A stretch of 12,918 bases of DNA. Origin: Candidatus Woesearchaeota archaeon. GTDB taxonomy: Archaea; Nanobdellota; Nanobdellia; SCGC-AAA011-G17; PNOQ01. The position numbers and the translations under genes were made by a program. The stretch's first letter is position 1. Each line of letters begins with the position of its first letter. The stretch is from assembly GCA_964481835.1 (NCBI GenBank), contig CAYZTT010000014.1, forward strand, positions 1 to 12,918, given 5' to 3'. The notes beneath the pieces are model-generated. The model did not search any database and was not told the DNA's origin. It saw only the letters and a program-made list of their open reading frames with translations. Of the stretch, positions 1-12,918 are shown piece by piece.

Positions 1-25
1 ACTAAAATTACTTGCTTGTATTCAC

Positions 26-337
26 TCATTTTTTGCCTTCTGATTTAAATTTGTGTTTAACCTGGCTCTCAACCTTCCTTAACACTTTATGTAGTGCCTT
101 ATGCAGCTCCCAATCATCTCCTTTCACATTAATTAAACTCTCCGGGGTTTTTACCTTAGCGTGAAAAGAATATTTACATCTCTCTCCAGCCTTATCATGT
201 TTTTTAGCATGTATGCTCAACAATCCAGGGAGATCTCTCTTTATCTTCTCATAATACCGCATAGAAAACTCTTCTATTTCCATTTTCTCATCATCCTTAA
301 AGTCCCTTAGGCCCAAAATTTGTATATTCTCATCCAT
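26..337 (-). CDS. Small basic protein resembling the ribosome hibernation factor HPF/RaiA (S30AE-like)
   Basis: 103-aa ORF with ATG at 335-337 on the minus strand. It aligns by eye to the HPF/YfiA pattern: an N-terminal strand 'NIQILG', a helix 'EIEEFSMRYYEKIKRDL', then 'KYSFHAKVKTPESLINVKGDDWELHKALHKVLRKVESQVKHKFK'. That last segment matches the conserved 'vEvtv.v.g..l.a.e..D.y.AiD...dKLe.Ql.K.k.k' half. The coding call is solid; the function call is tentative because no HMM was run. Confidence 0.5.
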   Translation of the reverse strand: MDENIQILGLRDFKDDEKMEIEEFSMRYYEKIKRDLPGLLSIHAKKHDKAGERCKYSFHAKVKTPESLINVKGDDWELHKALHKVLRKVESQVKHKFKSEGKK

Positions 338-364
338 CTTAATATATTAAAGAATAAAAGCTAT

Positions 365-2611
365 TTATTTCTTTCTCTTTTTATCAAAGAAATAGAACCC
401 TGCCAACAAAAGGGCCACAATAACAATTGATAAACTGCTCATAAATGGAACATTCTCACTAGCTAAAAAGCACTCTTGGAATTCTTCATATGTTGCTCCC
501 CCAGGAGATAAATAAATGACCTGCATCTCTCCAACCCCATCAGAACAGTCATTCGGACTTGATGCTGGACAAGCACAATCTCCAAAAATAGTTTGAGCTA
601 CATCTGAGCTTCCAGGAGGTGTGCCTGGCCCTCCAATATTAAAACATGATTGACAATCGCTCTCACATCTAAAAGCACCACTACAAGTTCCAGTTTCGCT
701 TCCAGGAGGATCGCAAACTTCATCATAACCATCACTACCATCATTGTCTATACTGCCATCGCCACACTCGTCATCACACGTAGAAGAACAACCGTCTCCA
801 TCCCGAGGAGTACATGTTCCTCCCGCACCTGCACAATCAGCATCACTCTCACAATAAGTTGAATCATCCCCTGTACAAAGTCCTCCATCATCACAATCTT
901 CTGTCCCTTCAGGAACTCCATTTCCACATGTGGATGGTCCTACAGAAGCACAAGTACAATCATTCATACAAATATCTCCTCCACTACATCCATCTCCCAA
1001 TACTAGAATATTATCGACAACTATAGATGAGATATAAGCATCCACTCCATTCCAAGTATAAGTCTCGGTTGTTCTAGGGGCATATAGGGCATCACAATCT
1101 TCTACACCATCTCGAACAAAATTTCCGCATCCTGCAGCATCAGTCACGCCAGCAGCAACACAATAATCGCCTGCCATATCCATATTGTCTCCAGGGACAT
1201 TATCCACAACATTTCTTAGAATATCATCATCAAATTCATCACAACATAAGGCTCCACCAATATCTGTGACTATTGACTCTCCCCCATCATCTCCACAAGC
1301 TTCAATCTCAAAATTAGAGCGATCATCTGGATAATGCCAAACTGTCCCATCCATTTCCCATCCATTGAATATCTTTACATACAAATCCACATCATTAACA
1401 TATTCCCCATAGGTTCCAATACTTGCTCCTTCAGCCCATACAACATCATCTGTCATATCCAAGGGTAAGCAATCAGAATAGAATTGAGTAACATAGTTCT
1501 CGCCATCATCTAAATCCCTAGTTCCGCTTCCTGCACGACAAGAAGTTCCTTGGCAATACCCCCCTCCTTCTCCGCCATCACAAATATTATTTCCTGTTGC
1601 GCCCGGATCTCCACAAACTTCATTACATTCCGGCGCCCCTGGTGGAAAGGTAGCTAAACAATCTTCAGTAGCCATTGTAGAACCATAGCCTCCTACAGTG
1701 CCCCCCATAGAAGATCCAAGGTTCTCTCCCCTTAAATCAAAGGGCTGTGATGCTGCGCCATCGCAAGACCTTGTATACGCAGTAGTAGCATCTGAGCAAC
1801 CAGCAGCATCTTGTGTTATACTCGGACAATTGCTCTTATCCCATCCACTAACTATGTCTCCATCGCTCCCGGCCCCATAATCGCAAGATCTTCCAAGAGT
1901 AAGGTCTCCCCCATACGGGCCAGCACAATATTCTAAACAAAATCCGCCTTCCCATTGCCAACTACTCTCCATATCTTCTAAAGCAGGTATTTGAGATGCA
2001 CCCCATTCTGCAGGGCCATATACTTTCTTAGCATCAATTGCATCATAGTCATTGGCACAATGTTGGTAAGGATGCGTCTCCGAGAGACCTTTTATTTGGG
2101 CATAAGGTGGGAACGCTGGATGCCCATTGCTACTATCCTGGCAAAAACTTCTCTTAACAATATAACTTCCAGCCACAAAATTACAAGAGCTATCTGGTAT
2201 CCAAGAAGGATCATAGCAAACAGATTCCGAATATGAATATGAAGTAGGACTAGTTACATCTCCCCCAGTGTAAGTAACATAGGGGTCTGCTTGAAAAAAT
2301 CTATTTATACACTCTCCTGGGCCTCCACCTGGACCTGGATCAACCCAATCACAAAGATGCAATACATCTCCTGTACCGTCTGCCTGTCCGGATTGACCTC
2401 CACGATCCTCTCTAAAACAATTCGCCCTATGGGGAAGATCTTCATTTTCGCAAGTAAGCTGACTCAAACCGCCACATAATATATTACAATCGGGGTAACT
2501 AACTGGGTTCCCAAATCCTGCACCCATATATCCATCACAAGGCGCGGCTGCAAGTGAATTAAAACTACTCAATATAAAACTAAAAACCAATACTAATATC
2601 AACCTCTTCAT
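365..2611 (-). CDS. Large cysteine-rich secreted surface protein with Myxococcus-type Cys-rich repeats and a C-terminal TM anchor
   Basis: The ORF extends to a TTG at 2617, but the ATG at 2609-2611 gives 'MKRLILVLVFSFILSSFNSLAAA|PCDG', a classic signal peptide, and lies 26.5 nt from a TATA box. The protein has roughly 50 Cys (about 7%) and is Asp/Gly-rich. The repeats 'CGNFVRDGVEDCD', 'CGNGVPEGTEDCDDG...DGDGCSSTC' and 'CGDGSIDN..DEVCDPPG' resemble the TIGR02232-type CGNG..E.CDDGN..DGC repeat. The C-terminus 'VPFMSSLSIVIVALLLAGFYFFDKKRKK' is a TM helix plus a basic tail. Confidence 0.75.
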   Translation of the reverse strand: MKRLILVLVFSFILSSFNSLAAAPCDGYMGAGFGNPVSYPDCNILCGGLSQLTCENEDLPHRANCFREDRGGQSGQADGTGDVLHLCDWVDPGPGGGPGECINRFFQADPYVTYTGGDVTSPTSYSYSESVCYDPSWIPDSSCNFVAGSYIVKRSFCQDSSNGHPAFPPYAQIKGLSETHPYQHCANDYDAIDAKKVYGPAEWGASQIPALEDMESSWQWEGGFCLEYCAGPYGGDLTLGRSCDYGAGSDGDIVSGWDKSNCPSITQDAAGCSDATTAYTRSCDGAASQPFDLRGENLGSSMGGTVGGYGSTMATEDCLATFPPGAPECNEVCGDPGATGNNICDGGEGGGYCQGTSCRAGSGTRDLDDGENYVTQFYSDCLPLDMTDDVVWAEGASIGTYGEYVNDVDLYVKIFNGWEMDGTVWHYPDDRSNFEIEACGDDGGESIVTDIGGALCCDEFDDDILRNVVDNVPGDNMDMAGDYCVAAGVTDAAGCGNFVRDGVEDCDALYAPRTTETYTWNGVDAYISSIVVDNILVLGDGCSGGDICMNDCTCASVGPSTCGNGVPEGTEDCDDGGLCTGDDSTYCESDADCAGAGGTCTPRDGDGCSSTCDDECGDGSIDNDGSDGYDEVCDPPGSETGTCSGAFRCESDCQSCFNIGGPGTPPGSSDVAQTIFGDCACPASSPNDCSDGVGEMQVIYLSPGGATYEEFQECFLASENVPFMSSLSIVIVALLLAGFYFFDKKRKK
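638..1132 (-). other. Region encoding three CGxG-x(5-9)-(E/D)xCD cysteine-rich repeats (aa ~496-660 of the surface protein)
   Basis: Motifs read directly from the translation: CGNFVRDGVEDCD, CGNGVPEGTEDCDDG, DGDGCSSTCDDECGDGSIDNDGSDGYDEVCD. Confidence 0.55.
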
Positions 2612-2633
2612 ATACAAAAATTAAGAAATATAC

Positions 2634-2641
2634 TATTTAAA
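2634..2641 (-). promoter_or_regulatory. TATA box (TTTAAATA on the minus strand) for the Cys-rich surface protein gene, overlapping the rlmE stop codon
   Basis: It is centred 26.5 nt upstream of the minus-strand ATG at 2611. The rlmE TAA (2637-2639) is embedded in it. Confidence 0.45.
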
Positions 2642-3182
2642 ACTTTCTAATCCCAACAACATAAACTTCCTTACTTCTTTTCTTAGATGCCTCTGGTTTT
2701 AATATCTTTATAACCCTAAAACTATCTTTAACTTCCTCAATAAATCCACTAAACAGCTCACTATTGAAAATTTTACAAACAAAGTTTCCATTTTTATTCA
2801 AAACTTCTTTTGCAATCTCAAGGGCCCGCATACTTATCTCAAAACTTAATTCATTATCTACCTTCCTAACTCCAATAGTCTTAGGGGCCAAATCGCTTAT
2901 AACTACATCATATTTATCCAATTTCTCAAATAAATCTTCATCAAAAACATCTGCTTCAATAAAATTAACACCTTCAATCTTCACTTCTTTTAAATCGACC
3001 GCATCCACATCTGCCTTTAAATCCAAACAATACTGGCTCCAGCTTCCAGGCCACGCACCCAAATCCAAAACTTTATCTTCTTGTTTAATTAATTTAAATT
3101 TATTATTGATATTCTTAAGTTTAAATACACTTCTTGCCTTATATCCCTCGGCTTTGGCTTTGGCAGTAAACTTATCTCTCAT
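2637..3182 (-). CDS. rlmE: 23S rRNA 2'-O-ribose methyltransferase RlmE/FtsJ family
   Basis: 181 aa. The N-terminus 'AKAEGYKARSVFKLKNINNKFKLI' matches the family pattern. 'VLDLGAWPGSWSQY' is the SAM-binding motif (canonical DLGAAPGGWSQ). 'VISDLAPKTIGVRKVD', 'FVCKIFNS' and 'KPEASKKRSKEVYVVG' supply the K-D-K-E tetrad context. The start ATG overlaps the upstream stop as ATGA at 3179-3182. Confidence 0.85.
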   Translation of the reverse strand: MRDKFTAKAKAEGYKARSVFKLKNINNKFKLIKQEDKVLDLGAWPGSWSQYCLDLKADVDAVDLKEVKIEGVNFIEADVFDEDLFEKLDKYDVVISDLAPKTIGVRKVDNELSFEISMRALEIAKEVLNKNGNFVCKIFNSELFSGFIEEVKDSFRVIKILKPEASKKRSKEVYVVGIRKF

Positions 3183-4054
3183 TTTGTATGTAACTCCACA
3201 ACATCTCCACTTTGCAAAGTATGCTTAAGCCCACATTTCATGCCCTCGTGTTTAGCAGATTTCCCCCAAATCCTTGCAAAGCTGAACTTTTTAATAAAAT
3301 CCTTATGGACCTCGGAAGCTAAATCCTTAACGCTAGATTTTTTCTTCAGCGCAATGGGAGGATAATCCTTTTTCTTTCCCGGGGTTTTAGTAAAAACATA
3401 AATTAAATCTAACGAGCTCCAAATCTTATTTTTTACATGGAACGGGTCCTCTTTCCGTTTAACCACAATTCTGTTTCCCTTTATGCCTGCCAACTCAAGC
3501 TCATGACCAATAAACTTTTCTTCCTTCTTATCTTCCGCCAAAATAACAATCAAATCTGCTCCCCTAATTATCCCTAAATGCATTGGGCCCTTCTCTTTCT
3601 CCATAAAATTCTCAACAATAGCAGGAATCTCAATAAGTTGAATCGGAACCTCATTAATCAACATTGTTCCAACTTCTGGAGCCTTAGTGCTAAATTCATA
3701 ATCTGCAACCAACGGGCTAGCATTCGTAATTTTACTCAATAGATAGGATTTTCCAGAATTGGTCCTTCCAATCAAAACAACTTGGGCAGACCCTTCCTTC
3801 TTGATACTAAAGCCTCCGCCCTTGCCTTTCCTCGCTAACTTCTCTTTTTCCAATAATGCCTTATATTTAGAAAGCCTCTGCTTTATTTCCCTCTCCAGAT
3901 TTTCAGTACCCTTATGCTTATTTAAAGAGGAAAGCATCTTTTGCAATCCTTTAATTTTATCTGGTAATCCCTCTGCTTGCAGATATTCTTTTTCTGCCCT
4001 CTGAAACTCCGGACTAACATTCGTTGGCATATTTAAAAGAAAAAAAGATAGCAT
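3179..4054 (-). CDS. Reduced DRG-family (archaeo-eukaryotic) GTPase-like protein with a C-terminal TGS domain
   Basis: The N-terminal helix 'NKHKGTENLEREIKQRLSKYKALLEKE' matches the DRG pattern NKAT..H.g.LKakLAkLr. 'GFSIKKEGSAQVVLIGRTNSGKSYLL' carries the G1 P-loop and 'YEFSTKAPEVG' carries G2. The TGS-like end is 'LIYVFTKTPGKKKDYPPIAL...FARIWGKSAKHEGMKCGLKHTLQSGDVVELHTK'. An alternative start is the ATG at 4028-4030 (MPTNVSPEF). Confidence 0.75.
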   Translation of the reverse strand: MLSFFLLNMPTNVSPEFQRAEKEYLQAEGLPDKIKGLQKMLSSLNKHKGTENLEREIKQRLSKYKALLEKEKLARKGKGGGFSIKKEGSAQVVLIGRTNSGKSYLLSKITNASPLVADYEFSTKAPEVGTMLINEVPIQLIEIPAIVENFMEKEKGPMHLGIIRGADLIVILAEDKKEEKFIGHELELAGIKGNRIVVKRKEDPFHVKNKIWSSLDLIYVFTKTPGKKKDYPPIALKKKSSVKDLASEVHKDFIKKFSFARIWGKSAKHEGMKCGLKHTLQSGDVVELHTK

Positions 4055-4073
4055 AAAAAACTTTCCATAACGC

Positions 4074-4080
4074 TTTTAAA
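4074..4080. promoter_or_regulatory. Shared TATA-like element (TTTTAAA) between divergent tRNA-Leu and the DRG-like gene
   Basis: It is centred 27 nt upstream of the tRNA 5' end (4104) and about 23 nt upstream of the minus-strand ATG at 4054. It is the only TATA-like element in the 49-bp spacer. Confidence 0.5.
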
Positions 4081-4103
4081 TCAAAATTATCCCCTAAAAT
4101 TAA

Positions 4104-4187
4104 GCAGGTGTGCCGGAGCGGTCAAACGGGGAGGACTCAAAATCCTTCGGCTTAGTGCCTACGCAGGTTCGAACCCTGTCACCTGCA
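4104..4187 (+). tRNA. tRNA-Leu (anticodon CAA), no encoded CCA
   Basis: Cloverleaf folded by hand. The acceptor stem is GCAGGTG/CACCTGC (7 bp) and the D-stem is CCG/CGG. The anticodon stem is GAGGA/TCCTT with loop CTCAAAA, giving anticodon CAA. There is a long variable arm CGGCTTAGTGCCTAC (class II), a T-arm GCAGG-TTCGAAC-CCTGT, and discriminator A4187. It is followed by CTA and then T6, so CCA is not encoded. Confidence 0.9.
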
Positions 4188-5219
4188 CTATTTTTTCAAA
4201 TGCACATCCATCTGGGGAAACGGAATCCCAATCCCTGCTTTATTCAACGCCTTATAGATTTTAGTGTTTGCCTCATCCTTAGAACTAAACCTATCTCCGA
4301 AATCATCAACATAGAAATAGGCTTTAAACAATAAAGCAGAATCCCCCATTTCTCTAAAACTGACATCCGGGGTAGGGTCATCAACAAAATTCTTAAGGGA
4401 TCTAATTTCTTTCATTACTATCTCCTTCACTTTATCTACATCGCTCCCATATTCAACTCCAAAAGGAATTACAACCCTTGATTTAGGTTCTGGTAAAGCA
4501 ACATTCTGAATAACACTCTCCGCCAATTTTGTATTTGGGACTATAAAATACTCATTATCAAAAGAAACGATCTTAGTACTCCTCAACCCAACCTTAACCA
4601 CTTTTCCTTTAGTCTCATTATCCAAATAAATTAAATCTCCAACCCCGACACTCTTATCCATAACAACACTGGCCCCAGAAAAAATATTAGCCAACACCGG
4701 TTGCAAAGCCAAAGCAACAGCCAAACCAGCAACACCCAAGGCCCCTAACAAGGGCAAGATCTCAACTCCCCAAATATTTAGAATATATAAAACCGCAACG
4801 ATAAACAAAGATATTTTTAAAACACTATGCACCAAAACAGCAATACTATCATCCAGTTTGCTCTTCGTCTTAGCAGTGACCCTTTTCAAAGCTCTGATAA
4901 CCCCCAAATCAACTAAAACATAAGCTAAATATCCAATAAAAATAACAATAAGAGAGTAGATCAGATTGGATAACACCCCGCTAATATTTTCAGCTAAAGC
5001 TAGTCTACCCAAGGTAAGCCTCAGGGTAACCAACAACAAAATATAAGTTATCGGCTTAGAAGATTTCTTCATAATCAAATCATCCACATCCGATTTGGTT
5101 TTAATAGTGACTTTCAGCAAAATCTTCTCCAGAACAAAAAAAGCTATTCGTAATCCTAAGAAAACTACAAAAAAATACAAAAAAGCACTAAAATAAGGAT
5201 TTCCCATGTCAAAAACCAT
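4188..5219 (-). CDS. mscS: Small-conductance mechanosensitive channel, MscS family
   Basis: 343 aa with several N-terminal TM helices. The pore helix and beta-domain signature is 'LANIFSGASVVMDKSVGVGDLIYLDNETKGKVVKVGLRSTKIVSFDNEYFIVPNTKLAESVIQNV'. This matches the MscS pattern ..PF.vGD.I.v.g..G.V..I.lr.T.i...dg..v.iPNs.l....i.N. Confidence 0.85.
   Translation of the reverse strand: MVFDMGNPYFSAFLYFFVVFLGLRIAFFVLEKILLKVTIKTKSDVDDLIMKKSSKPITYILLLVTLRLTLGRLALAENISGVLSNLIYSLIVIFIGYLAYVLVDLGVIRALKRVTAKTKSKLDDSIAVLVHSVLKISLFIVAVLYILNIWGVEILPLLGALGVAGLAVALALQPVLANIFSGASVVMDKSVGVGDLIYLDNETKGKVVKVGLRSTKIVSFDNEYFIVPNTKLAESVIQNVALPEPKSRVVIPFGVEYGSDVDKVKEIVMKEIRSLKNFVDDPTPDVSFREMGDSALLFKAYFYVDDFGDRFSSKDEANTKIYKALNKAGIGIPFPQMDVHLKK
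4191..4196 (+). terminator. Oligo-T tract (T6) immediately 3' of tRNA-Leu, archaeal-type terminator
   Basis: TTTTTT at 4191-4196, 4 nt after the discriminator base. It lies inside the 3' end of the convergent mscS coding region. Confidence 0.45.
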
Positions 5220-5242
5220 CAGAAACTAATAAATAAGAAAGG

Positions 5243-5250
5243 TTTTAAAA
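5243..5250. promoter_or_regulatory. Perfectly palindromic TATA box (TTTTAAAA) shared by divergent leaderless genes mscS and trmI
   Basis: Its centre is 5246.5. That is 27.5 nt from the minus-strand ATG of mscS (5219) and 26.5 nt from the plus-strand ATG of trmI (5273). Each strand has a purine-rich BRE-like flank 5' of the element: AAGAAAGG on plus and GGAAAATC on minus. Confidence 0.55.
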
Positions 5251-5272
5251 GATTTTCCCCAATCCATAAAAT

Positions 5273-5986
5273 ATGAAATTCAAAAGAATCCTACAAAGAA
5301 ATGAAAAACAGTATTATTGGGTAGAGGGAGATTTCCACTCCAATCAAGGTATACTTAAAGAGGAAGATATAAAATCAAAATCTCGATTAGAATCCAGTTC
5401 AGGAAAAGAGTTCTCTGCATACGATGCAAAGTTCATTGATAATCTCAAAAAAATAAAACGTGGCCCCCAAATAATGTCTTTCAAAGATATAGGTCGAATA
5501 ATAATAGAAACAGGAATAAATAAAAATTCAACAGTTTTAGATTGTGGAACCGGTTCTGGAATGCTAACTGCATCGCTAGCCAACATAGTAAAGAAAGTAA
5601 TAACATATGAGAAAAGAGAAGGATTCTTAAAAATAGCAAAAAAGAATTTTGAAAATTTAGGATTAAAAAATATTACAATAAAAAATAAAGATATATACGA
5701 AGGAATTGACGAAAAAAATCTAGATTTAATAACCTTAGATTTAGAAAAACCAGATTTAGTTTTAAAACATGCAGAAACGTCTCTGGTTTCTGGAGGTTTT
5801 CTCGTAGTTTATGTTCCAACAATCCCCCAGATACAAAACGTTTTAAAAAATATAACTGAAAATCTCCAAGTTACAAAATTCACTGAAATATTAGAACGAG
5901 ATTGGAAATTTGAAAGGGGAATAGTAAGGCCAGAAAATCAAATGTTGGGGCACACTGGCTTTTTATTATTCCTTAGGAAAGTTTAG
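5273..5986 (+). CDS. trmI: tRNA (adenine-N1)-methyltransferase TrmI/GCD14 family (m1A57/58)
   Basis: 237 aa. The N-terminal beta-domain is followed by 'RGPQIMSFKDIGRIIIETGI', matching the family's 'tqi.ypKD...I' segment. The SAM motif is 'VLDCGTGSGMLTASLA', followed by 'DLITLDLEKP'. The family-typical C-terminus is 'RPENQMLGHTGFLLFLRK'. Confidence 0.85.
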   Translation: MKFKRILQRNEKQYYWVEGDFHSNQGILKEEDIKSKSRLESSSGKEFSAYDAKFIDNLKKIKRGPQIMSFKDIGRIIIETGINKNSTVLDCGTGSGMLTASLANIVKKVITYEKREGFLKIAKKNFENLGLKNITIKNKDIYEGIDEKNLDLITLDLEKPDLVLKHAETSLVSGGFLVVYVPTIPQIQNVLKNITENLQVTKFTEILERDWKFERGIVRPENQMLGHTGFLLFLRKV

Positions 5987-5991
5987 TAACA

Positions 5992-5999
5992 TATATAAA
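5992..5999 (+). promoter_or_regulatory. TATA box (TATATAAA) for the PIN-ATPase-KH gene
   Basis: It is centred 26.5 nt upstream of the ATG at 6022. Confidence 0.5.
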
Positions 6000-6021
6000 T
6001 CTAATATGAGGACAATTAACT

Positions 6022-7806
6022 ATGAAAACATATGTACCAGACACTTCTGCAATCATAGAGGGCGTCATTTCTGAATTAATAGAAAAAAGTGAAATCTCCG
6101 GAGCGATAATTATCGCCAATGCAGTAGTTTCAGAATTAGAGGCACAAGCAAACAGGAGAAAAGAAATTGGATTCTTAGGATTAGATGAATTAAAAAAACT
6201 CCAAGGATTTAAAAAAGAAGGGAGAATAGAACTAAGATTTGTAGGCCCAAGGCCAACCCCAGACCAGATCAAATATGCAAAATCCGGAGAGATAGATGCC
6301 ATGATAAGGCAGATAGCCTATGAAGAATCTTCTACCCTAATAACTGCAGACATAGTCCAGGCAGAATCTGCAAGAGTATATGGGTTAGAAGTGAAATTCA
6401 TAGAACAAGTTCCTCTAAAAGAAAAACTAAGTATAGAGAAATATTTTGACAAAACCACAATGTCAGTTCACTTAAAAGAAGATACAACCCCCTTAGCAAA
6501 AAGGGGTGCCCCAGGAAACTGGCAACTTGTAAAAACAGGAAAAAAATTATATTACAAAGAAATAAACAAAATTGCAAAAGAAATTGTAGAAAAAGCAAGG
6601 ATGGACCCAAAATCCTTTGTAGAAATATCCAGATCAGGATCAACAGTAATTCAATACAAAAACTATAGAATTGTAATCGTAAGAAAACCAATTTCAGATG
6701 GCTTAGAAATAACTGCAATAAGGCCAATCAAGAAATTAAATTTAGATGATTATCAAATTCAAGAAGAACTTTTAGAAAGAATAAAAACTCAGGCAAGAGG
6801 AGTTTTACTTGCAGGAGAAACGGGTTCAGGGAAATCTACACTAGCACAAGCAATAGCAGAATATTACGCAAACAATTCAAAAATAACAAAAACGGTAGAA
6901 TCTCCAAGGGATTTGCAATTAGACCAAAAGATAACACAATATTCAAAAAACTTCTCAACTTCAGAAGAAATTCACGATATATTATTTCTTTCGAGACCAG
7001 ACAACTTAATATTTGACGAGATAAGAGATACTCCCGATTTCAAATTATTTATCGACCTAAGACTTGCTGGCTCAGAATGCCTGGGCGTAATCCACTCTGC
7101 TTCGGCAATTGATGCAGTACAAAGATTCATTGGAAGAATAGATACAGGTTTAATCCCCTCAGTAATTGATACCATAATCTTCATGGAAGCCGGGAAGATA
7201 CATACAATTTTAACTCTAAAAATGTCCGTCAAAGTACCTTCAGGAATGACTGAAGCAGATCTAGCAAGACCAGTAATAGAAATATTTGATTTCATCGAAA
7301 ATTCACCAGCTTACGAAATATATTCCTACGGAGAAGAAACTGTAGTAATCCCAGTTGAAAATAAAAAATCTCCTTCCCAAAAATTAGCAGAAAAACAACT
7401 ACTAAAAGAGATAAGGCAATATTCCAAAGATGCAGACGTAGAATTAATTTCCAACAATAGGGCAAACATATTTGTTCCAGAAAAAGATATCGCTCAAATA
7501 ATCGGAACAAAAGGAAAAAGAATTGAAAATATAGAAAATAATATTGGAATAAAGATAACGGTTAAGCCAAAACTAAAAAAACAAGATTCATTAGAGTATA
7601 ATGTTGCAGAAACAGCAAAGTACATAATATTTAGATTCCCAAAAAATATAACAAAACAATCTATAGAATTCACACTCGATGGACAGTTCCTATTCTCTGC
7701 AATAACCTCAAACAAATCAAAGATACAAATTCACAAGAAATCCCAACTTGGAAAAAGTCTAGCAGAAGCTTTAGATAATAACAGAAATATAGAAGCCAAA
7801 TTCTAA
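6022..7806 (+). CDS. PIN domain / PilT-like P-loop ATPase / KH domain protein (archaeal COG1855-type)
   Basis: 594 aa. The N-terminal PIN-like segment is 'YVPDTSAIIEG...'. The Walker A motif is 'LLAGETGSGKSTLAQA' and the Walker-B-like motif is 'PDNLIFDEIRD'. The C-terminal KH motif is 'IAQIIGTKGKRIENIENNIGIKITV' (GxxG). This three-domain architecture is typical of the conserved archaeal ATPase family. Confidence 0.8.
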   Translation: MKTYVPDTSAIIEGVISELIEKSEISGAIIIANAVVSELEAQANRRKEIGFLGLDELKKLQGFKKEGRIELRFVGPRPTPDQIKYAKSGEIDAMIRQIAYEESSTLITADIVQAESARVYGLEVKFIEQVPLKEKLSIEKYFDKTTMSVHLKEDTTPLAKRGAPGNWQLVKTGKKLYYKEINKIAKEIVEKARMDPKSFVEISRSGSTVIQYKNYRIVIVRKPISDGLEITAIRPIKKLNLDDYQIQEELLERIKTQARGVLLAGETGSGKSTLAQAIAEYYANNSKITKTVESPRDLQLDQKITQYSKNFSTSEEIHDILFLSRPDNLIFDEIRDTPDFKLFIDLRLAGSECLGVIHSASAIDAVQRFIGRIDTGLIPSVIDTIIFMEAGKIHTILTLKMSVKVPSGMTEADLARPVIEIFDFIENSPAYEIYSYGEETVVIPVENKKSPSQKLAEKQLLKEIRQYSKDADVELISNNRANIFVPEKDIAQIIGTKGKRIENIENNIGIKITVKPKLKKQDSLEYNVAETAKYIIFRFPKNITKQSIEFTLDGQFLFSAITSNKSKIQIHKKSQLGKSLAEALDNNRNIEAKF

Positions 7807-9062
7807 AACGGATCGTATTGCACAAGATTTCCTTCAGGAGTCACCATAATATTTGTATGGACTCCAGAAAAACGTGAAACAGCCTCATCATAAGTAAACG
7901 GCACAAAACCAGGATCCCTATACGGGTGGCGCCCATAAATATTATTGAACTGTCTAATCATACCTGGAGTGGCCTCTCCCGAAGCCAGAACTTCTCCAAA
8001 TTCCCTCCCAGGAATAAACTGCCTATCAATGTACCCTCTAAACCCATTCATCCCGAACTCGTCCTTAAGAATCCTTGTCCTTAAAATTCTCGCAGTGGGG
8101 ATTCCTCTAGCTTCCATCTCAGCTTGTAAAGCAACCTCATTATTGAACACTCCTCGGTGTATAATATGTTTTCTAACTGCCCCATTTGGCATACGATAAA
8201 CGGGCCTAATTCCTCCTTGCAACTCTACCGGCGCCCCACGTATAAGGTGTGCTGCAAAGAGAGATAGAACAATCGCAGGAGCTTGATGTACAAGTTCCTC
8301 AAAATACCCTACATCTCCCGACATTCTACGTAAATCCATATCAGAAAGTGCTTGCCCCCCCATATTATATTCAGTTAATTTTCCATTTCCATAATCTGCC
8401 CAGGCCTCTCCAGTCTTAGAATTGGAAAAGCCATAAGCTTCAAAAGGCAAATTATAGAAATTTATCTCTGAATTTGTATCTCTAACGTCCCCCCAAAGAG
8501 AATTATACATACTTTCTCCAAATTTTTCATTCACCCATCCGGGAGGATCCTGAAAAATATTTTGCTGATTCAAAGTCCAACTTTCCATCCCAGTAGGATC
8601 AACATAATTCATTGGATTACTTTCAACATAAGAATAAGGTTGATTCCCTTCAACCGGATCCACCCCACTAAACCTTCCCAAATTATCATCATAATATCTA
8701 GCACCAAAATAATACAAAGAAGATTCATCCTCTTCTTTTCCAGTGAATGGGTAATCCACTCCCGAGTTCACAACCTTCTGGCCAAAAGGCAACGATTTAA
8801 ACTCCTTATCTAAATTTCCAGAAGAATCCGTTGTAATTCGATTACTCATCCTGCCTTGATGATAATATTCAACTTCAGGACCCCTAACAGAGGCAACTAC
8901 TGAACTCCCCACATAAATAAACTTCTTAACTCCCATATCTTCTCTCAAAGGAACATACCCCCCCATTTCCCCAGAACTAATTCCCGGAATATCAATAACC
9001 GCTGCATAAGAAATAGGCACACAAGCAATTACCAAAATTAAAAATATCACCAAAGTTTTCAT
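7803..9062 (-). CDS. Secreted RHS repeat-associated-core protein with an unrecognised 260-aa C-terminal (putative toxin) domain
   Basis: 419 aa. The signal peptide is 'MKTLVIFLILVIACVPISYAA'. Residues 61-159, 'YYHQGRMSNRITTDSSGNL..LPFGQKV..YPFTGKEEDESSLYYFGARYYDDNLGRFSGVDPVEGNQPYSYVESNPMNYVDPTGM', match the RHS core terminus (TIGR03696-type: pfG...rFtGqe.D.etGLyyyrARYYDp.lGRF.s.DP...N.Y.Yv.nNP.n.vDPsGl). Residues 160-419 contain no motif I can assign. Confidence 0.8.
   Translation of the reverse strand: MKTLVIFLILVIACVPISYAAVIDIPGISSGEMGGYVPLREDMGVKKFIYVGSSVVASVRGPEVEYYHQGRMSNRITTDSSGNLDKEFKSLPFGQKVVNSGVDYPFTGKEEDESSLYYFGARYYDDNLGRFSGVDPVEGNQPYSYVESNPMNYVDPTGMESWTLNQQNIFQDPPGWVNEKFGESMYNSLWGDVRDTNSEINFYNLPFEAYGFSNSKTGEAWADYGNGKLTEYNMGGQALSDMDLRRMSGDVGYFEELVHQAPAIVLSLFAAHLIRGAPVELQGGIRPVYRMPNGAVRKHIIHRGVFNNEVALQAEMEARGIPTARILRTRILKDEFGMNGFRGYIDRQFIPGREFGEVLASGEATPGMIRQFNNIYGRHPYRDPGFVPFTYDEAVSRFSGVHTNIMVTPEGNLVQYDPF
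7806..8585 (-). other. Variable C-terminal domain (aa 160-419) downstream of the Rhs cleavage-type motif; function unknown
   Basis: It lies directly after DPTGM. It is cysteine-free and shows no HExxH, HNH, deaminase or obvious ART signature. Confidence 0.5.
8586..8882 (-). other. RHS-core / DPxG...DPxG[LM] autoproteolysis-type segment (aa 61-159)
   Basis: I verified by reverse-complementing 8571-8600: gat cct act ggg atg gaa agt tgg translates to DPTGM|ESW. Confidence 0.7.
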
Positions 9063-9082
9063 ATAACTCTAAACAAAAATTA

Positions 9083-9090
9083 ATATAAAA
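9083..9090 (-). promoter_or_regulatory. TATA box (TTTTATAT on the minus strand) upstream of the RHS-core gene
   Basis: It is centred 24.5 nt upstream of the minus-strand ATG at 9062, within the 34-bp spacer after the glycoside-hydrolase-like gene. Confidence 0.4.
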
Positions 9091-9096
9091 ATGTAT

Positions 9097-10833
9097 CTAA
9101 CCCGGCAGCAAAGGGGGGCTCAACTTACTCGCTCCATAAGATATCCAATACCCTTTCTTAGGCTGTAAAACATCCAACAAAGTTAATTCAACATATTCTC
9201 CATCAATCGGCCCGTATTCCCAGACACCATTAACCAATCCTGGATCTGCAACTAAATCAGAAACAACTATTGGATCTCTAACCCCAATCAAACTCAGTCC
9301 CTCACTAACAACCACTTCATCAATTTGTTCATAGCCTTCAAAAGATAAACTCACAACGCTGTTAGAATGCACAAAATATCCCCTTCCAAATTCTAAATCC
9401 ACTAAATCACCTTCACCGTTAATCCAGTATTCCCAATTACCATCAAATCCCAATACACTATCTGCTCCAGATTCACTAAAAATATCCAAACCCGAAGTTA
9501 CATCTAAGGGAATAGATATCAAATTCCATCCTTCAACAAGATCAATATCCGAAGTTATTAACAAACAATCTAAGTCTTCATCAACCTCATTATCACAATT
9601 ATTGTCTGCACCGTCGCAAATCTCTTCCATTCCAGGGTTTATATCATAAGAAAAAACACTGCAGCTTGAATTAAAATTATTGAAGAATGAAACTTCATGT
9701 TCGTCACTAACCTCTAGCCGCTTAAAGTAAAGCCTGCTAAGTCCAATTCCTCCAGAGAACAAATGTGTCCCATCCCCAAGTACATTTATCTCCGGGGCAT
9801 TATACACCTTATTATCAAAACTACCCAGCCAAGTATAGCCATCAATAAGGTCATCCGAATAAAAATAATTTATTCCCTCCGTGCTATGGTCCGTTTCACA
9901 CTCTCCCTGGTTAGATTCCCAACATTTACTCAACAAATAATGTCTCTCCCCCACATCAAAAACAACAACATTTTCTGCCTGCCCCATATCTACCTCTTCA
10001 ATCATATCCACTGCATTCCAATTAATTAGATCGGAACTTTCAGAAACATCAACTCCTGCAGATAATGTATCTGATCGCTTAATTGTATTATACATAAGCC
10101 AGCGATCTCCATCTTTCAAAACAAAGGGATCCCTACACTGGTTATTCCACCCCCCAGGAACCCCATGTGTGCTCCAAGGGTTTCTACAATCATAGACACA
10201 CCCATCTCCAGTTGTTCCAGGACAATTATTTACCGAAGCCCTATCCCAAGTAACTAAGTCACTAGAAATTAACAGTCCAGTTCTCTGACTATAATAATCG
10301 GGGGTTCCATCATCTTGATGTGCAACTCCGGTATAAAACATATAGTACATCCCATCATCTTCATTAAAATAAACATAAGGCGCCCAAACATTTCCGTCAT
10401 CCCAATCCGTCTCACTCAAACTAGAATCAATGACATCTTGGTGATATTCCCAATTTACAAAATCTGAAGTCATAAAATCATAAATTATCTTGTTATTATA
10501 ATGATGGTAAAATACATGGTAAAATCCATCCCGATACACAACAGAATGATCTGCTATCCACCCATAGGGCCCTGGGGGAGCAAAATTATAACTGGTGTCT
10601 TCATTACATTCCTCCGTCCCATCAACATAATAAGGAAAATAAGAATCAAAGCAATCATCTCCCCCACAGGCCTCGTCCAAATATCCATCCTCATCGCGAT
10701 CAGGACAATCTCCAAAAGGAAAGTTCGCAGGAGATTTCTGCGCATCTTGCCCAATAATACTCAAGAGTATAATTGCTATAAAACTAATTATCGCCAAACT
10801 GGTCATAAAAAAATAAAGTATCCTCTTTCCCAT
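9097..10833 (-). CDS. Membrane-anchored extracellular 5-bladed beta-propeller glycoside-hydrolase-like protein (GH43/GH32/GH68 superfamily) with MopE-like Cys/Asp motifs and an uncharacterised C-terminal domain
   Basis: 578 aa with an N-terminal TM/signal anchor 'ILYFFMTSLAIISFIAIILLSII'. Propeller motifs are 'IADHSVVYRDGFYHVFY' (candidate nucleophile Asp), 'VWAPYVYFNEDDGMYYMFYTG', 'CRDPFVLKDGDRWLMY' (RDP-type) and 'GQAENVVVFDVGERHYLLS' (candidate acid/base Glu). The propeller is flanked by 'DCPDRDEDGYLDEACGGDDCFD' and 'ICDGADNNCDNEVDEDLDC', both MopE-type putative metal-binding motifs. The family-level call is by eye only. Confidence 0.6.
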   Translation of the reverse strand: MGKRILYFFMTSLAIISFIAIILLSIIGQDAQKSPANFPFGDCPDRDEDGYLDEACGGDDCFDSYFPYYVDGTEECNEDTSYNFAPPGPYGWIADHSVVYRDGFYHVFYHHYNNKIIYDFMTSDFVNWEYHQDVIDSSLSETDWDDGNVWAPYVYFNEDDGMYYMFYTGVAHQDDGTPDYYSQRTGLLISSDLVTWDRASVNNCPGTTGDGCVYDCRNPWSTHGVPGGWNNQCRDPFVLKDGDRWLMYNTIKRSDTLSAGVDVSESSDLINWNAVDMIEEVDMGQAENVVVFDVGERHYLLSKCWESNQGECETDHSTEGINYFYSDDLIDGYTWLGSFDNKVYNAPEINVLGDGTHLFSGGIGLSRLYFKRLEVSDEHEVSFFNNFNSSCSVFSYDINPGMEEICDGADNNCDNEVDEDLDCLLITSDIDLVEGWNLISIPLDVTSGLDIFSESGADSVLGFDGNWEYWINGEGDLVDLEFGRGYFVHSNSVVSLSFEGYEQIDEVVVSEGLSLIGVRDPIVVSDLVADPGLVNGVWEYGPIDGEYVELTLLDVLQPKKGYWISYGASKLSPPLLPG

Positions 10834-10854
10834 ACAAAGAAATCTTAATTCATG

Positions 10855-10864
10855 TATATAAAAT
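10855..10864 (-). promoter_or_regulatory. TATA box (ATTTTATATA on the minus strand) for the glycoside-hydrolase-like gene
   Basis: It is centred about 26.5 nt upstream of the minus-strand ATG at 10833. Confidence 0.45.
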
Positions 10865-10896
10865 TAACCAAATATTGTTCCTCAACATATAAATCC

Positions 10897-10904
10897 TTTT
10901 TAAT
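10897..10904 (+). promoter_or_regulatory. TATA-like element (TTTTTAAT) for dacZ
   Basis: It is centred 24.5 nt upstream of the ATG at 10925. A second candidate, ATATAAAT at 10887-10894, lies 34.5 nt upstream. Confidence 0.35.
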
Positions 10905-10924
10905 CTAGCACCACTAAAAAAGTT

Positions 10925-11758
10925 ATGAACCCCATAGAGCAAGCTATAGGAACTGCAGCAACAAAAATTGCCAGAGAAATAAATTCCGATTCAATAATCT
11001 CAATTGAAAAATTAACCGGTGAAGAATACGAGGAAGATTCCAATCTTAACATAAAAGTCACAATTTTCAAAAGAATAGATCCAAAAAAATACAAAAAAGC
11101 AGAATATAAAACTAAAACAAGGAAACTAGAGGCGGGCTCCATAATCCCAGTAAAAGAAATTCTAATGGAAGCCATAACAAAGAACTACATAAACAAAGGG
11201 GAGCGAGTAGTTTGTATAGAAGATGGATCAACAGGAACCGGATACAAAGGAATCTTATTTGTGTTTGATGTTGATGAAGTATTTTTCAAAATTGGAAAGC
11301 AAAATATCTCAGAACATATAAATCCAGAGATCATAGAGGCAACAGTGGATATTGCTTTAAAGATAGCCCATGAGGGAAGAGAAGGCAGGCATGTTGGGAC
11401 TGCATTCATAATAGGAAATCTCTCAGAGATAAATAAAAACCTAAAACAACTAATAATTAATCCCTTCAAAAGTTTAGATGAAAAAGTGAAGATAACCGAT
11501 CCAGCCATAAGAGAAACAGTAAAAGAATTCTCCCAACTAGACGGTGTTTTCGTAATAGACGAAGAAGGCCACATAATAAGTGCGGGAACCTACATTGATA
11601 TAAATTTCTCAGATGTAGATCTCCCCGAAGGATTTGGAACAAAACATAGATCTTGTGCAGCCCTAACAAAAGAAACAAATGCAGTAGCCATCACAGTTTC
11701 CGAATCCGGCGGCAGAGTAAGAATCCTCAAAGATGGCAGAATAGCTGTAAAAGTCTAG
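10925..11758 (+). CDS. dacZ: DacZ-type diadenylate cyclase (pyruvate-kinase-C-like N-domain + DAC domain)
   Basis: 277 aa. The DAC-domain motifs are 'HEGREGRHVGTAFIIGN', 'QLDGVFVIDEEGHIISAGTYI' (DGA-type motif, here DGV) and 'GFGTKHRSCAALTKETNAVAITVSESGGRVRILKDGRI'. The last segment is the GTRHRAA...vVSEE.G.is motif, here KHR. The N-terminal ~130 aa regulatory domain fits the archaeal DacZ architecture. Confidence 0.75.
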   Translation: MNPIEQAIGTAATKIAREINSDSIISIEKLTGEEYEEDSNLNIKVTIFKRIDPKKYKKAEYKTKTRKLEAGSIIPVKEILMEAITKNYINKGERVVCIEDGSTGTGYKGILFVFDVDEVFFKIGKQNISEHINPEIIEATVDIALKIAHEGREGRHVGTAFIIGNLSEINKNLKQLIINPFKSLDEKVKITDPAIRETVKEFSQLDGVFVIDEEGHIISAGTYIDINFSDVDLPEGFGTKHRSCAALTKETNAVAITVSESGGRVRILKDGRIAVKV

Positions 11759-11793
11759 ATATTAATCACTATACAGTTACAACAATAGAAAGA

Positions 11794-11801
11794 TTTATAA
11801 A
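11794..11801 (+). promoter_or_regulatory. TATA box (TTTATAAA) for the OMP-like gene
   Basis: It is centred 28.5 nt upstream of the ATG at 11826. This supports 11826 rather than the TTG at 11808 as the start. Confidence 0.5.
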
Positions 11802-11825
11802 GAGAAATTGCCCTATTCTAATAAA

Positions 11826-12314
11826 ATGTCAAGTACAATAAAGAGAGGAATAGGACTATTAACATTTGCCCTATTAGCACTTCCCAGACTTGTTTTTGGA
11901 GACGTATACGCTGGCTTAAATGGAAGCCTATATGCAAATTCACAAGGGGGAGATTCATATTCCATCGCCGCAGAAATTGGAGAAACAGAAAAAGGAATGA
12001 ACAGAAGAGCAAATTTAGAATTCCAAAATCTATCAACTGATTTAAGAGTTGGATATGGATTTGGAAATGGTTGGTTAGTTCCTTATTTCACCGGGGGAAT
12101 TTCGGCAATAGTTGAACCTTCACTAAATGATGTTTCCTTATCTCCTGCATTTGCTGCAGGCCTAGAATTTAGATTATCAGAAAATCTATTGCTTGGGGTA
12201 GAGGGCCAATTGAAAGGACATCCAGAATCTTTAGAAGGCGATTCCGGGGTATCTTTAACAGGGACAAGCGCAGACAACAGACTCGTAAAAGTGTCTTTAA
12301 AATTTAGAAAATAA
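11826..12314 (+). CDS. Small secreted protein with an 8-strand outer-membrane beta-barrel-like pattern (OmpX/OmpA-TM/OMP_b-brl-like)
   Basis: The signal peptide is 'MSSTIKRGIGLLTFALLALPRLVFG|D'. About 8 amphipathic alternating segments follow: DVYAGLNGSLYAN, SYSIAAEIG, RRANLEFQNL, DLRVGYGFG, LVPYFTGGISAIV, FAAGLEFRLS, LLLGVEGQLKG, RLVKVSLKFRK. 'GYGFG', 'AAGLEFRLSENLLLGVEGQ' and the terminal 'VSLKFRK' resemble the PF13505-type pattern. The fold call is tentative. Confidence 0.45.
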   Translation: MSSTIKRGIGLLTFALLALPRLVFGDVYAGLNGSLYANSQGGDSYSIAAEIGETEKGMNRRANLEFQNLSTDLRVGYGFGNGWLVPYFTGGISAIVEPSLNDVSLSPAFAAGLEFRLSENLLLGVEGQLKGHPESLEGDSGVSLTGTSADNRLVKVSLKFRK

Positions 12315-12316
12315 TT

Positions 12317-12918
12317 CTAAAATTCGTAATTTAAAAATAATCCTCCGGAGTGAGTATTTGGATCCCACTCTGCCGAAGCTGAAAGCCCCCGGTAGTCTGG
12401 GCTTGTAACCCCAATTCTTGGAAAGTATCCCCCGATAGAATTGCTAGAGAAATCATGCAGTATTCCATTCCCTTTCAAGGTATTAACTAAATAGCCTATC
12501 TGATCTGAAGGCACAGACCATGATTCCCCCAATATCTCTCCCGATAGAGAATACCCAGAATAAGTGGTTCTAGTCGCTTGATACCCAAAAGGATAGCTTA
12601 CAGAGACAGTAGTCCCCCAAGGCCCCCCCCTATTCGCTTGGACTCCCCAAAGAACATACCCAGTCTGATGATTAGCATTAATTGTTCCTGAAACAGTAGA
12701 TTCTTCTTCAACTCCCATTTCCCCAACATAAATCGAGCCAATATTTGCATGCCCCCTTAACAAAAGATTGGCAGTCAATGGAGTATTATAATTAAACCCT
12801 GCCGCTTCCAAGAAAGCACTAGACTCTCCAATAAAAGGCACGTTAATTCTTCCCGCCGGATTTCTCGCCGGGATGGCCGCGTCGGCGTTGGCTGAAATCG
12901 GTGCCAACGCGAAAGCCG
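12317..12918 (-). CDS. Secreted beta-rich protein ending in an OMP beta-signal-like motif (…GGLFLNYEF); 5' end lies beyond the window
   Basis: The frame stays open to the window edge and reads '..AFALAPISANA|DAAIP', the tail of a signal peptide with an AxA cleavage site. The M in the ORF track is a TTG. Alternating-hydrophobic strands include 'ANLLLRGHANIGSIYVGE', 'TGYVLWGVQAN', 'TTVSVSYPFGYQA' and 'YSGYSLSGEILG'. The C-terminus 'LFLNYEF' has a terminal Phe. Confidence 0.45.
   Translation of the reverse strand, partial: AFALAPISANADAAIPARNPAGRINVPFIGESSAFLEAAGFNYNTPLTANLLLRGHANIGSIYVGEMGVEEESTVSGTINANHQTGYVLWGVQANRGGPWGTTVSVSYPFGYQATRTTYSGYSLSGEILGESWSVPSDQIGYLVNTLKGNGILHDFSSNSIGGYFPRIGVTSPDYRGLSASAEWDPNTHSGGLFLNYEF

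Follow-up and report, generated by a model that had tools for sequence, protein, structure and literature searches.

In bacterial Rhs/YD polymorphic toxin systems the Rhs core ends in a DPxG...DPxG motif directly ahead of a hypervariable C-terminal (CT) domain (Zhang et al. 2012, PMC3482391). The behaviour that defines the cassettes of polymorphic toxins is the joint exchange of the CT domain and its neighbouring gene, with breakpoints at the junction of the core and the CT domain; such systems were long considered rare in archaea (PMC3482391). Tse5 is an example of an Rhs pore-forming toxin (PMC10684867). Here we describe two convergent genes at the end of a 12,918-nucleotide stretch of DNA from a Candidatus Woesearchaeota archaeon (GCA_964481835.1, contig CAYZTT010000014.1, positions 1-12,918, forward strand; "the window" in what follows). 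The first gene encodes protein 1, a small secreted protein related to the barrels of bacterial outer-membrane proteins (OMPs), and the second encodes protein 2, a short protein with an Rhs core and a C-terminal domain, CT-A. The pair occupies a slot that holds different cassettes in different strains, and protein 1 is, on balance, probably the immunity partner of CT-A.

The locus resembles the bacterial Rhs/YD systems in the position of the core end directly before the variable domain, in the joint exchange of that domain and the adjoining small gene between strains, in the presence of several paralogues per genome and in the fast divergence of the cassette relative to its conserved flanks. 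It differs in that the host is an archaeon (Woesearchaeota-like) and in that the N-terminal part is about 130 aa long, with no encapsulating YD shell, no type VI secretion system (T6SS), PAAR or VgrG module, and a plain signal peptide for export. Furthermore, the CT domain belongs to no known family, and the partner is convergent, secreted and OMP-barrel-like.

OMP-type transmembrane beta-barrels count as a hallmark of diderm bacteria and of the organelles derived from them. The immunity proteins against pore-forming colicins and against the membrane toxins of T6SS and contact-dependent inhibition (CDI) systems are alpha-helical and reside in the inner membrane. Protein 1 resembles the colicin-type immunity proteins in being a putative toxin-specific protector in the envelope that is encoded beside the variable domain of the toxin, and differs from them in being a beta-barrel homologue with a predicted immunity role. 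The family to which it is related, PF13505 (OMP_b-brl), has OprH (2LHF) as its type structure (OMPdb, PMC9581022). Protein 1 has in common with this family, with the OmpA transmembrane domain and with OmpX a signal peptide, a mature domain of about 137 aa and eight amphipathic strands. It shares the core PYxxGG...GxEYxxxxNxxxGxE with bona fide PF13505 members, and has their conserved charged or polar face and variable hydrophobic face. Unlike these members, it comes from an archaeon without a known outer membrane or beta-barrel assembly machinery (BAM), is known from three lineages, has very short loops, ends in FRK and scores at the family threshold; its closed barrel is putative. The cyanophage barrel PF24653 / phrog_417 is likewise a small OMP-like barrel from a non-diderm genetic entity, but the similarity to it is below threshold and a viral context was not found here. 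A literature search found no paper on OMP-type barrels in Woesearchaeota, nor one on short Rhs proteins in them, although the short-Rhs family may have been described earlier.

The convergent gene pair

The gene for protein 1 lies on the plus strand at 11826-12314 and encodes 162 aa, with its TAA stop codon at 12312-12314. The gene for protein 2 lies on the minus strand, and its C-terminal part occupies 12317-12854, corresponding to about the last 178 residues of CT-A. It ends in GGLFLNYEF, followed by a TAG stop codon (cta on the forward strand) at 12317-12319. The stop codons are thus separated by 2 nt, as read from the sequence and as the initial annotation of the window had stated.

Eleven contigs carry the exact sequence of protein 1; they come from three JGI samples, five ENA assemblies and two Logan runs, and the order of DacZ, protein 1 and the convergent gene is common to all of them. 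The junction of the two genes recurs in no fewer than 9 independent assemblies. Because this order is reproduced across independent assemblies, the gene pair is not a misassembly. Up to position 12854 the window has a single mismatch (at 7883) with L001, a contig 19.9 kb in length. The following 64 nt, 12855-12918, differ from it at 38 of 64 positions, and all seven of the other independent assemblies that cover this point (7/7) agree among themselves and not with the window. This tail has a GC content of 67%, compared with about 37% for the window (range about 35-40%), and no match to it was found among the other sequences gathered for the analysis. It is a chimeric contig end, and therefore the seeming N-terminus and signal peptide of protein 2 in the window are an artefact. 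The assembly L003 likewise breaks within a few bases of 12855.

A misassembled bacterial sequence at the contig end had been considered in the initial annotation, and for the last 64 nt, with their high GC content and their disagreement with every other assembly, this applies. As an explanation of the gene pair it is extremely improbable. Up to 12854 the window is identical, bar 7883, to independent contigs from 10 samples or runs, which continue into archaeal genes, and the GC content, the TATA promoters and the synteny are continuous with the archaeal flank. Misassembly of 11826-12854 is refuted by these contigs.

The surroundings of the pair are archaeal. The neighbours include a PRK13764/PINA PIN-ATPase-KH protein (745 bits) and a DacZ-type diadenylate cyclase (10925-11758, plus strand), and the closest relatives are in Woesearchaeota metagenome-assembled genomes (MAGs). 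A T[TA]TA[TA]A element is situated at -24 to -37 from the start codon in 9 of the 11 genes in the window, which is the pattern expected of archaeal leaderless transcripts. The elements of the genes for proteins 1 and 2 are at about -27 to -32. That of protein 1, TTTATAAA, lies on the plus strand at 11794-11801 (-32 to -25 from the ATG), so the archaeal-type TATA box that had been noticed at a leaderless distance from the plus-strand gene is indeed there.

Protein 2 is a short Rhs-core protein

The full protein 2 has 437 aa and is encoded on the minus strand of L001 (10492-11805). Its N-terminal 259 residues, including the signal peptide and the Rhs core, lie beyond the window. The minus-strand gene, which in the window looks like a complete gene for a signal-peptide protein of about 200 aa, is really the end of the gene for this longer protein. 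The protein begins with a signal peptide (MKRGVILLLLLLVFSSFSYA), continues with about 130 aa that end in ...FTGKEEDESSLYYFGARYYDDNLGRFSGVDPV-x17-DPTGM and is completed by CT-A, about 285 aa long. The NCBIfam model TIGR03696 (Rhs_assc_core) matches residues 87-154 with 62.2 bits (cut-off 32.5; E 5e-17), and the motif DPV-x17-DPTGM marks the core end directly before CT-A. No RHS_repeat or TEN_YD-shell match from Pfam was found in protein 2, which has just the ~130 aa ahead of the core end. Related strains do have full-size YD-shell proteins, encoded by genes of their own close by.

A search of 5.8 billion proteins produced 682 relatives, nearly all of which cover the N-terminal ~35% of protein 2 alone. 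Several of them are named 'RHS repeat-associated core domain-containing protein [archaeon]'. When the best 120 of the 682 were clustered on their last 150 residues, they separated into 81 unrelated C-terminal clusters, with LysM/peptidase M15, pesticin and HINT domains among the types represented. The closest genomic relatives are in MAGs labelled 'archaeon' (isolates SI037/SI048...) and Candidatus Woesearchaeota, some of which have several copies per genome. The window itself contains a second short Rhs-core protein (P0011; 419 aa, 7803-9062, minus strand; TIGR03696 E 1.3e-17), which has the same N-terminal module as protein 2 and an unrelated C-terminal domain, so that the family is polymorphic within this one genome. 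The Rhs core, the N-terminal module shared by proteins with unrelated C-termini and the relatives in Woesearchaeota together identify protein 2 as a short, apparently Sec-exported polymorphic toxin of the Rhs type from a DPANN-like archaeon, its toxicity being predicted.

Some further members of the family deserve mention. The gene at 7803-9062, which lacks a partner gene, shares 4 nt with the PINA ATPase gene; the C-terminal domain of its product is weakly similar to RhuM and PADLOC PDC-S05 (E 6e-5). In related strains a short-Rhs gene with LysM and Peptidase_C39_2 domains is present at a position neighbouring that of 7803-9062. In a second lineage, described below, a full-size YD-shell/Laminin_G protein of 2936 aa adjoins the cassette (L010 2-472; 377-kb contig, JGI 3300072015). 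Its C-terminus is likewise rich in Gly, Ser and Tyr and ends in ...GGRIAWERPIGY.

The CT-A domain

CT-A is rich in Gly, Ser and Tyr. It had no match in Pfam at E values up to 10, and none in the PDB when searched with phmmer, either alone or as a profile. When it was compared by hhalign with the OMP_b-brl alignment, no relation was found (probability 0.15%). The domain is present in three lineages, namely the window strain (lineage i), lineage ii (P0003/L010/L015; 79% identical) and L013 (30% identical over the whole domain). A search of metagenome contigs with the CT-A profile returned lineage ii again and nothing further. A pair of Cys residues (YVGxCxExSCGY), three invariant His residues and a C-terminal NY[EG]F are conserved. 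The automated comparison of strand faces that is described below for protein 1 showed no bias in CT-A (11/36 against 11/39), and 30% of its columns fall in amphipathic windows. The ratio of non-synonymous to synonymous divergence (dN/dS) of CT-A between lineages i and ii is 0.09, showing that the domain is under purifying selection.

The tail of CT-A, with alternating hydrophobic residues and a terminal Phe, reads GGLFLNYEF, GGLFLNYGF and RAGINYEF in the three lineages. It had been interpreted as the beta-signal of an OMP, and its conservation bears out that it is a fixed feature of the domain. However, a terminal Phe is enriched throughout the best 120 relatives: it is found in 24/120 proteins and in 15/81 C-terminal clusters, compared with a background of 5% (binomial p 5e-9), often as ...[VF]EF or ...YxF. 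Because the enrichment extends across unrelated C-terminal domains, the tail of CT-A is not specific evidence for an OMP, and the bias suggests a C-terminal signal common to the family. The proposal that both products of the gene pair are OMP-like is supported for protein 1, for the reasons given in the next section, and is not supported for protein 2. With the chimeric start of protein 2 in the window also taken into account, half of the original proposal falls; that both proteins carry signal peptides is nevertheless correct, the genuine signal peptide of protein 2 lying outside the window.

Protein 1 is related to OMP_b-brl barrels

Protein 1 has a Sec-type signal peptide (residues 1-25, MSSTIKRGIGLLTFALLALPRLVFG|DVY, that is ...RLVFG|DVY), as read directly from the sequence. 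The mature part divides by manual assignment into eight amphipathic segments joined by very short loops. The motifs GYGFG, AAGLEFRLSENLLLGVEGQ and VSLKFRK, quoted in the initial annotation together with the GGLFLNYEF of protein 2, are all present.

The match of protein 1 to PF13505, a comparison that the earlier work had recommended, is above the threshold, with 29.6 bits (cut-off 28.7; E 9.3e-7), and aligns residues 24-126 with positions 54-149 of the 175 in the model. An exhaustive phmmer search of 1.84 billion representatives returned two relatives in all, P0122 and P0123. P0122 has 158 aa, is 37% identical to protein 1, matches the same part of the PF13505 model with 28.0 bits and ends in ...LVIKYNQNS. 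P0123 (E 3.5e-5) is a bona fide bacterial OMP of 447 aa, encoded by high-GC DNA, with tandem OMP_b-brl/OmpA_membrane domains (PF13505 95.8 bits; OmpA_membrane 60.7). The archaeal trio aligned by hhalign with the two domains of P0123 over 71 columns with 89% probability (E 2.3e-6), and the core common to both is PYxxGG...GxExxxxxNxxxGxE. Weak matches, below threshold, were also found to the cyanophage OMP-like barrels PF24653 (E 0.005) and phrog_417 (E 0.0026).

This relationship was further supported, indirectly, by the distribution of conserved residues over the two faces of the strands. Upon comparison of protein 1 with P0122 over the eight manually assigned strands, 25/42 residues of the polar face (60%) were identical, against 7/42 (17%) of the hydrophobic face (p 1e-4). 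An automated version of the test gave 25/43 (58%) and 10/43 (23%), respectively (p 0.002). Of the controls, a bona fide OMP gave 22/34 (65%) and 14/38 (37%), and a soluble protein showed no difference. As judged from the aligned residues, this bias is the signature of barrels of the OmpA/OmpX type, in which the polar lumen is conserved and the exterior facing the lipid varies, and is the reverse of what would be expected of a soluble barrel, whose hydrophobic core is the conserved part. Purifying selection acts on the gene, with a dN/dS of 0.08 between lineages i and ii. At the level of sequence, then, protein 1 is established as a divergent homologue of the bacterial 8-stranded OMP_b-brl barrels.

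Searches of genome contigs with the protein 1 profile found no further relatives, leaving the protein known in the three lineages that also have CT-A. The protein 1 and CT-A profiles had no matches among viral contigs, and no viral context was found for the pair. Scans of PHROGs and PADLOC gave nothing useful for the gene pair. Protein 1 alone had no match among PDB sequences. Matches to OmpA in the PDB (E 0.002) appeared solely when the bacterial P0123 was included in the profile; they are partly circular and were set aside. The z-score of the period-2 hydrophobic moment was dropped as a discriminator after the positive control OmpX gave z = 0.

Replacement of the cassette between strains

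The flanks of the contig L099 have about 81% nucleotide identity to the window strain, and the two strains have DacZ proteins that are 97% identical and PINA ATPases that are 88% identical. When L001 was compared with L099 by blastn, the match was found to end at L001 position 9983, which is 18 nt ahead of the ATG of protein 1 (about 11808 in the window). The TATA element at 11794-11801 is the last stretch that is still shared. The match restarts at L001 11344, precisely the junction between the Rhs core and the CT domain (residue ~154 of protein 2). The full cassette, L001 9984-11343, therefore extends from just past the TATA box to this junction, and the window contains 11809-12854 of it.

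In L099 the corresponding slot (3969-5362) is occupied by allele B, which consists of an unrelated 194-aa protein with a signal peptide and a 420-aa short Rhs protein, again convergent and again with a gap of 2 nt. The C-terminal domain of the latter, CT-B, is unrelated to CT-A and ends in ...RPSIGVQYQFVP; hhalign found no relation between partner B and OMP_b-brl. Allele B is present at the dacZ slot in two further strains, and its two versions are 59% identical in the partner (B/B') and 67% identical in the CT domain (CT-B/B'), compared with 94% for DacZ. In allele C (L104/L105) a short Rhs gene with yet another domain, CT-C, abuts dacZ without a small gene. The slot extends over 4001-5273 in L104 and over 869-2724 in L108. 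A tRNA-Arg(CCT) gene forms its other edge in all three alleles. Thus, there is a hypervariable slot with at least three alleles (A, B and C) between tRNA-Arg(CCT) and dacZ, while the flanking genes are 87-97% identical and DacZ is 94-97% identical across strains with different cassettes. Since the small gene and the CT domain are replaced together, by another pair or by a CT domain that has no partner, protein 1 is read as the cognate partner specific to CT-A.

The distribution of the two genes was also followed outside the window strain. On the 377-kb contig of lineage ii the pair shows both the 2-nt gap and the synteny seen in the window strain, with protein 1 91% and CT-A 79% identical. In L013 the OMP-like gene (37% identical) and the CT-A gene (30%) overlap by 13 nt. 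The OMP-like gene thus adjoins CT-A in every lineage in which it was found. The OMP-like profile had no match among six-frame open reading frames of those loci of the family that lack CT-A (L016-L095, 80 genome loci with flanks of up to 3 kb per side, less at contig ends). Its sole other match in these loci is a bacterial OMP in the Geobacteraceae locus L075. The tight convergent abutment of the genes was considered as evidence of linkage and rejected, because other members of the family abut housekeeping genes in the same way and the layout alone proves nothing.

A proposed function for the gene pair

The host of the cassette is a tiny marine archaeon of the Woesearchaeota-like (DPANN) kind. 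We consider the locus to be allele A of a polymorphic-toxin slot and protein 1 to be the partner of CT-A, on balance most likely its immunity protein. According to this proposal, protein 2 would be exported by means of its Sec signal peptide. The YD/Rhs-core module of about 130 aa would then cleave itself after DPTGM, by analogy with bacterial Rhs proteins, and free CT-A, whose predicted site of action is the envelope or membrane, outside the cytoplasm. Protein 1 would be transcribed from its own archaeal leaderless promoter and also be exported, and might reside in or on the envelope of the producer, where it would neutralise CT-A released by the cell itself or by its kin. The extracytoplasmic location of the partner points to an action of CT-A beyond the cytoplasm, too. 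A polar lumen and a hydrophobic exterior are expected of protein 1, and the hydrophobic exterior argues for a location embedded in lipid or protein.

Several points weigh against this proposal. Lineages i and ii are syntenic and hence not independent, and the only independent lineage, L013, is a contig of 1.3 kb. In genomes as compact as these, tight convergent overlaps often involve housekeeping genes. Immunity genes are usually co-directional with the toxin gene and directly downstream of it, whereas the partner here is convergent. We know of no precedent for an immunity protein that is a transmembrane beta-barrel, and a single-membrane archaeon has no obvious home or insertase for such a barrel. 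The synonymous divergence (dS) between lineages i and ii is 0.59 for the protein 1 gene (L001 10001-10489 compared with L010 2424-2912), less than half the 1.40 of CT-A; the low value for the OMP-like gene could be caused by recombination inside the cassette or by constraint on the overlapping 3' ends. As to the barrel itself, the PF13505 score of protein 1 is just 0.9 bit over the gathering threshold, and a search of the PDB with the archaeal-pair profile did not find OmpA or OmpX, the best match being TbuX/TodX (E 0.18). Protein 1 lacks a terminal aromatic residue, ending in ...VKVSLKFRK with a Phe at -3. AlphaFold2 gave uninformatively low confidence values (pLDDT), 36.8 for protein 1 from a single sequence, with a helix modelled at residues 3-25, and 27.6 for CT-A from a 2-row alignment.

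Some of these points would also be expected if there were no functional link and no real barrel, that is, if PF13505 had given a borderline, spurious match to a beta-rich secreted protein and the genes were neighbours owing to the compactness of the genome. The narrow margin over the threshold, the lack of a significant PDB match for the archaeal-pair profile, the low pLDDT of protein 1 and the frequency of convergent overlaps with housekeeping genes are all consistent with this. It is nevertheless very unlikely, given that two sequences with 37% identity match the same region of PF13505, that phmmer and hhalign both connect protein 1 with a protein that scores 95.8 bits on that family, that its face signature agrees with the positive control and that the breakpoints of the cassette fall at the promoter of the small gene and at the Rhs-core/CT junction. 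If a link is accepted, protein 1 might still be an accessory specific to CT-A and not an antidote. It could serve as a chaperone, assist docking or export or, as an activator, hold or present the cleaved domain at the surface. Co-replacement and co-occurrence apply equally to such a role, allele C manages without any partner, the convergent orientation is atypical of immunity genes, and an archaeal producer may need no immunity if the targets are bacterial, as the peptidoglycan hydrolases among the sister domains might indicate. An accessory is nonetheless unlikely. In the characterised polymorphic toxin systems the gene that varies together with the toxin domain is an immunity gene (Zhang et al. 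2012, PMC3482391), protein 1 has no homology to known chaperones or adaptors, and the fast divergence of partner and C-terminal domain together is typical of antagonistic pairs, though compatible with helpers.

A different possibility is that both products are transmembrane beta-barrels of bacterial origin, exported into a foreign membrane, such as the outer membrane of a diderm partner or prey, where they might form a two-component pore or adhesin, or into an unrecognised outer layer of the archaeon. The OMP_b-brl homology and OMP-type face signature of protein 1 and its weak matches to the cyanophage barrels fit this idea, as do the porin-like ...NY[EG]F end that CT-A has kept in all three lineages and the enrichment of terminal Phe throughout the family. 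Bacterial targets are also suggested by the many sister C-terminal domains that are directed at peptidoglycan (LysM, M15, pesticin). However, CT-A has no OMP profile or PDB match, its amphipathic columns amount to 30% with equally conserved faces, and its Cys pair and three invariant His residues look more like those of an enzyme or a soluble fold. There is no established route by which an OMP inserts from the cell exterior, neither a BAM nor an Omp85 gene was found within ~20 kb around the locus, and alleles B and C show that the slot behaves like a toxin locus. This makes foreign-membrane barrels improbable. Quite unlikely, too, is a bolder reading in which a monoderm DPANN archaeon makes and uses a genuine lipid-embedded OMP-type barrel, its fold captured from diderm bacteria and fixed behind an archaeal promoter. 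The barrel would then serve either as a membrane-resident antidote that pairs with the porin-like strand of the toxin or, jointly with the toxin, to insert into or mimic the OMPs of bacterial neighbours. In the inserting or mimicking variant the ...xEF/YxF tails of the family would be mimics of the OMP beta-signal, aimed at the BAM or DegS of the target. In both variants a transmembrane beta-barrel would operate beyond the outer membranes of bacteria and organelles.

Whichever role protein 1 has, an OMP-like gene in this archaeon is real and unexpected. The locus brings to light a large family of short, Sec-exported Rhs proteins, predicted to be toxins, in Woesearchaeota-like archaea, together with an allelic slot between tRNA-Arg and dacZ in which the cognate partner of one allele is a homologue of bacterial OMP barrels that is under selection and has a native promoter. 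The C-terminal Phe bias of the family spans unrelated toxin domains. If protein 1 is indeed the immunity protein of CT-A, it would add a structurally new class to the known immunity proteins and be a clear example of a bacterial envelope fold put to new use in an archaeon. If it is embedded in a membrane, the question arises how a beta-barrel folds without BAM. Small gene pairs of this kind can be tested experimentally and offer a way to study how DPANN archaea compete with or attack their neighbours.

Other genes in and around the window

The other genes of the window include those for a TGS-domain GTPase, RlmE and a GCD14/TrmI-like methyltransferase. The sole Rfam match is a tRNA-Leu(CAA) at 4104-4187 (plus strand), situated between the GTPase and MscS genes. 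A 750-aa secreted protein, rich in Cys and in Gly/Asp and with a C-terminal membrane anchor, is encoded at 365-2617 (minus strand) and has no Pfam match. At 9097-10833 (minus strand) is the gene for a secreted GH43/GH32-like beta-propeller protein with a MopE-type Cu-binding motif, which has 578 aa here and 1305 aa in its lineage ii counterpart.

Just past the end of the window, L001 has about 2.1 kb (11840-13864) between the Rhs gene and tRNA-Arg that is extra relative to the strains with alleles B and C. This insert encodes a 138-aa protein with an N-terminus like that of archaeal type IV pilins (MNKLGVNPLIVTSILVGLTVVIG), a 157-aa HINT-domain protein with a Cys-rich tail, a 70-aa open reading frame and one gene for LGT (prolipoprotein diacylglyceryl transferase). 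The dS of the pilin-like gene between lineages i and ii is 1.35. A second LGT gene is located just past the tRNA. LGT is a bacterial-type enzyme, and two copies are unusual for an archaeon.

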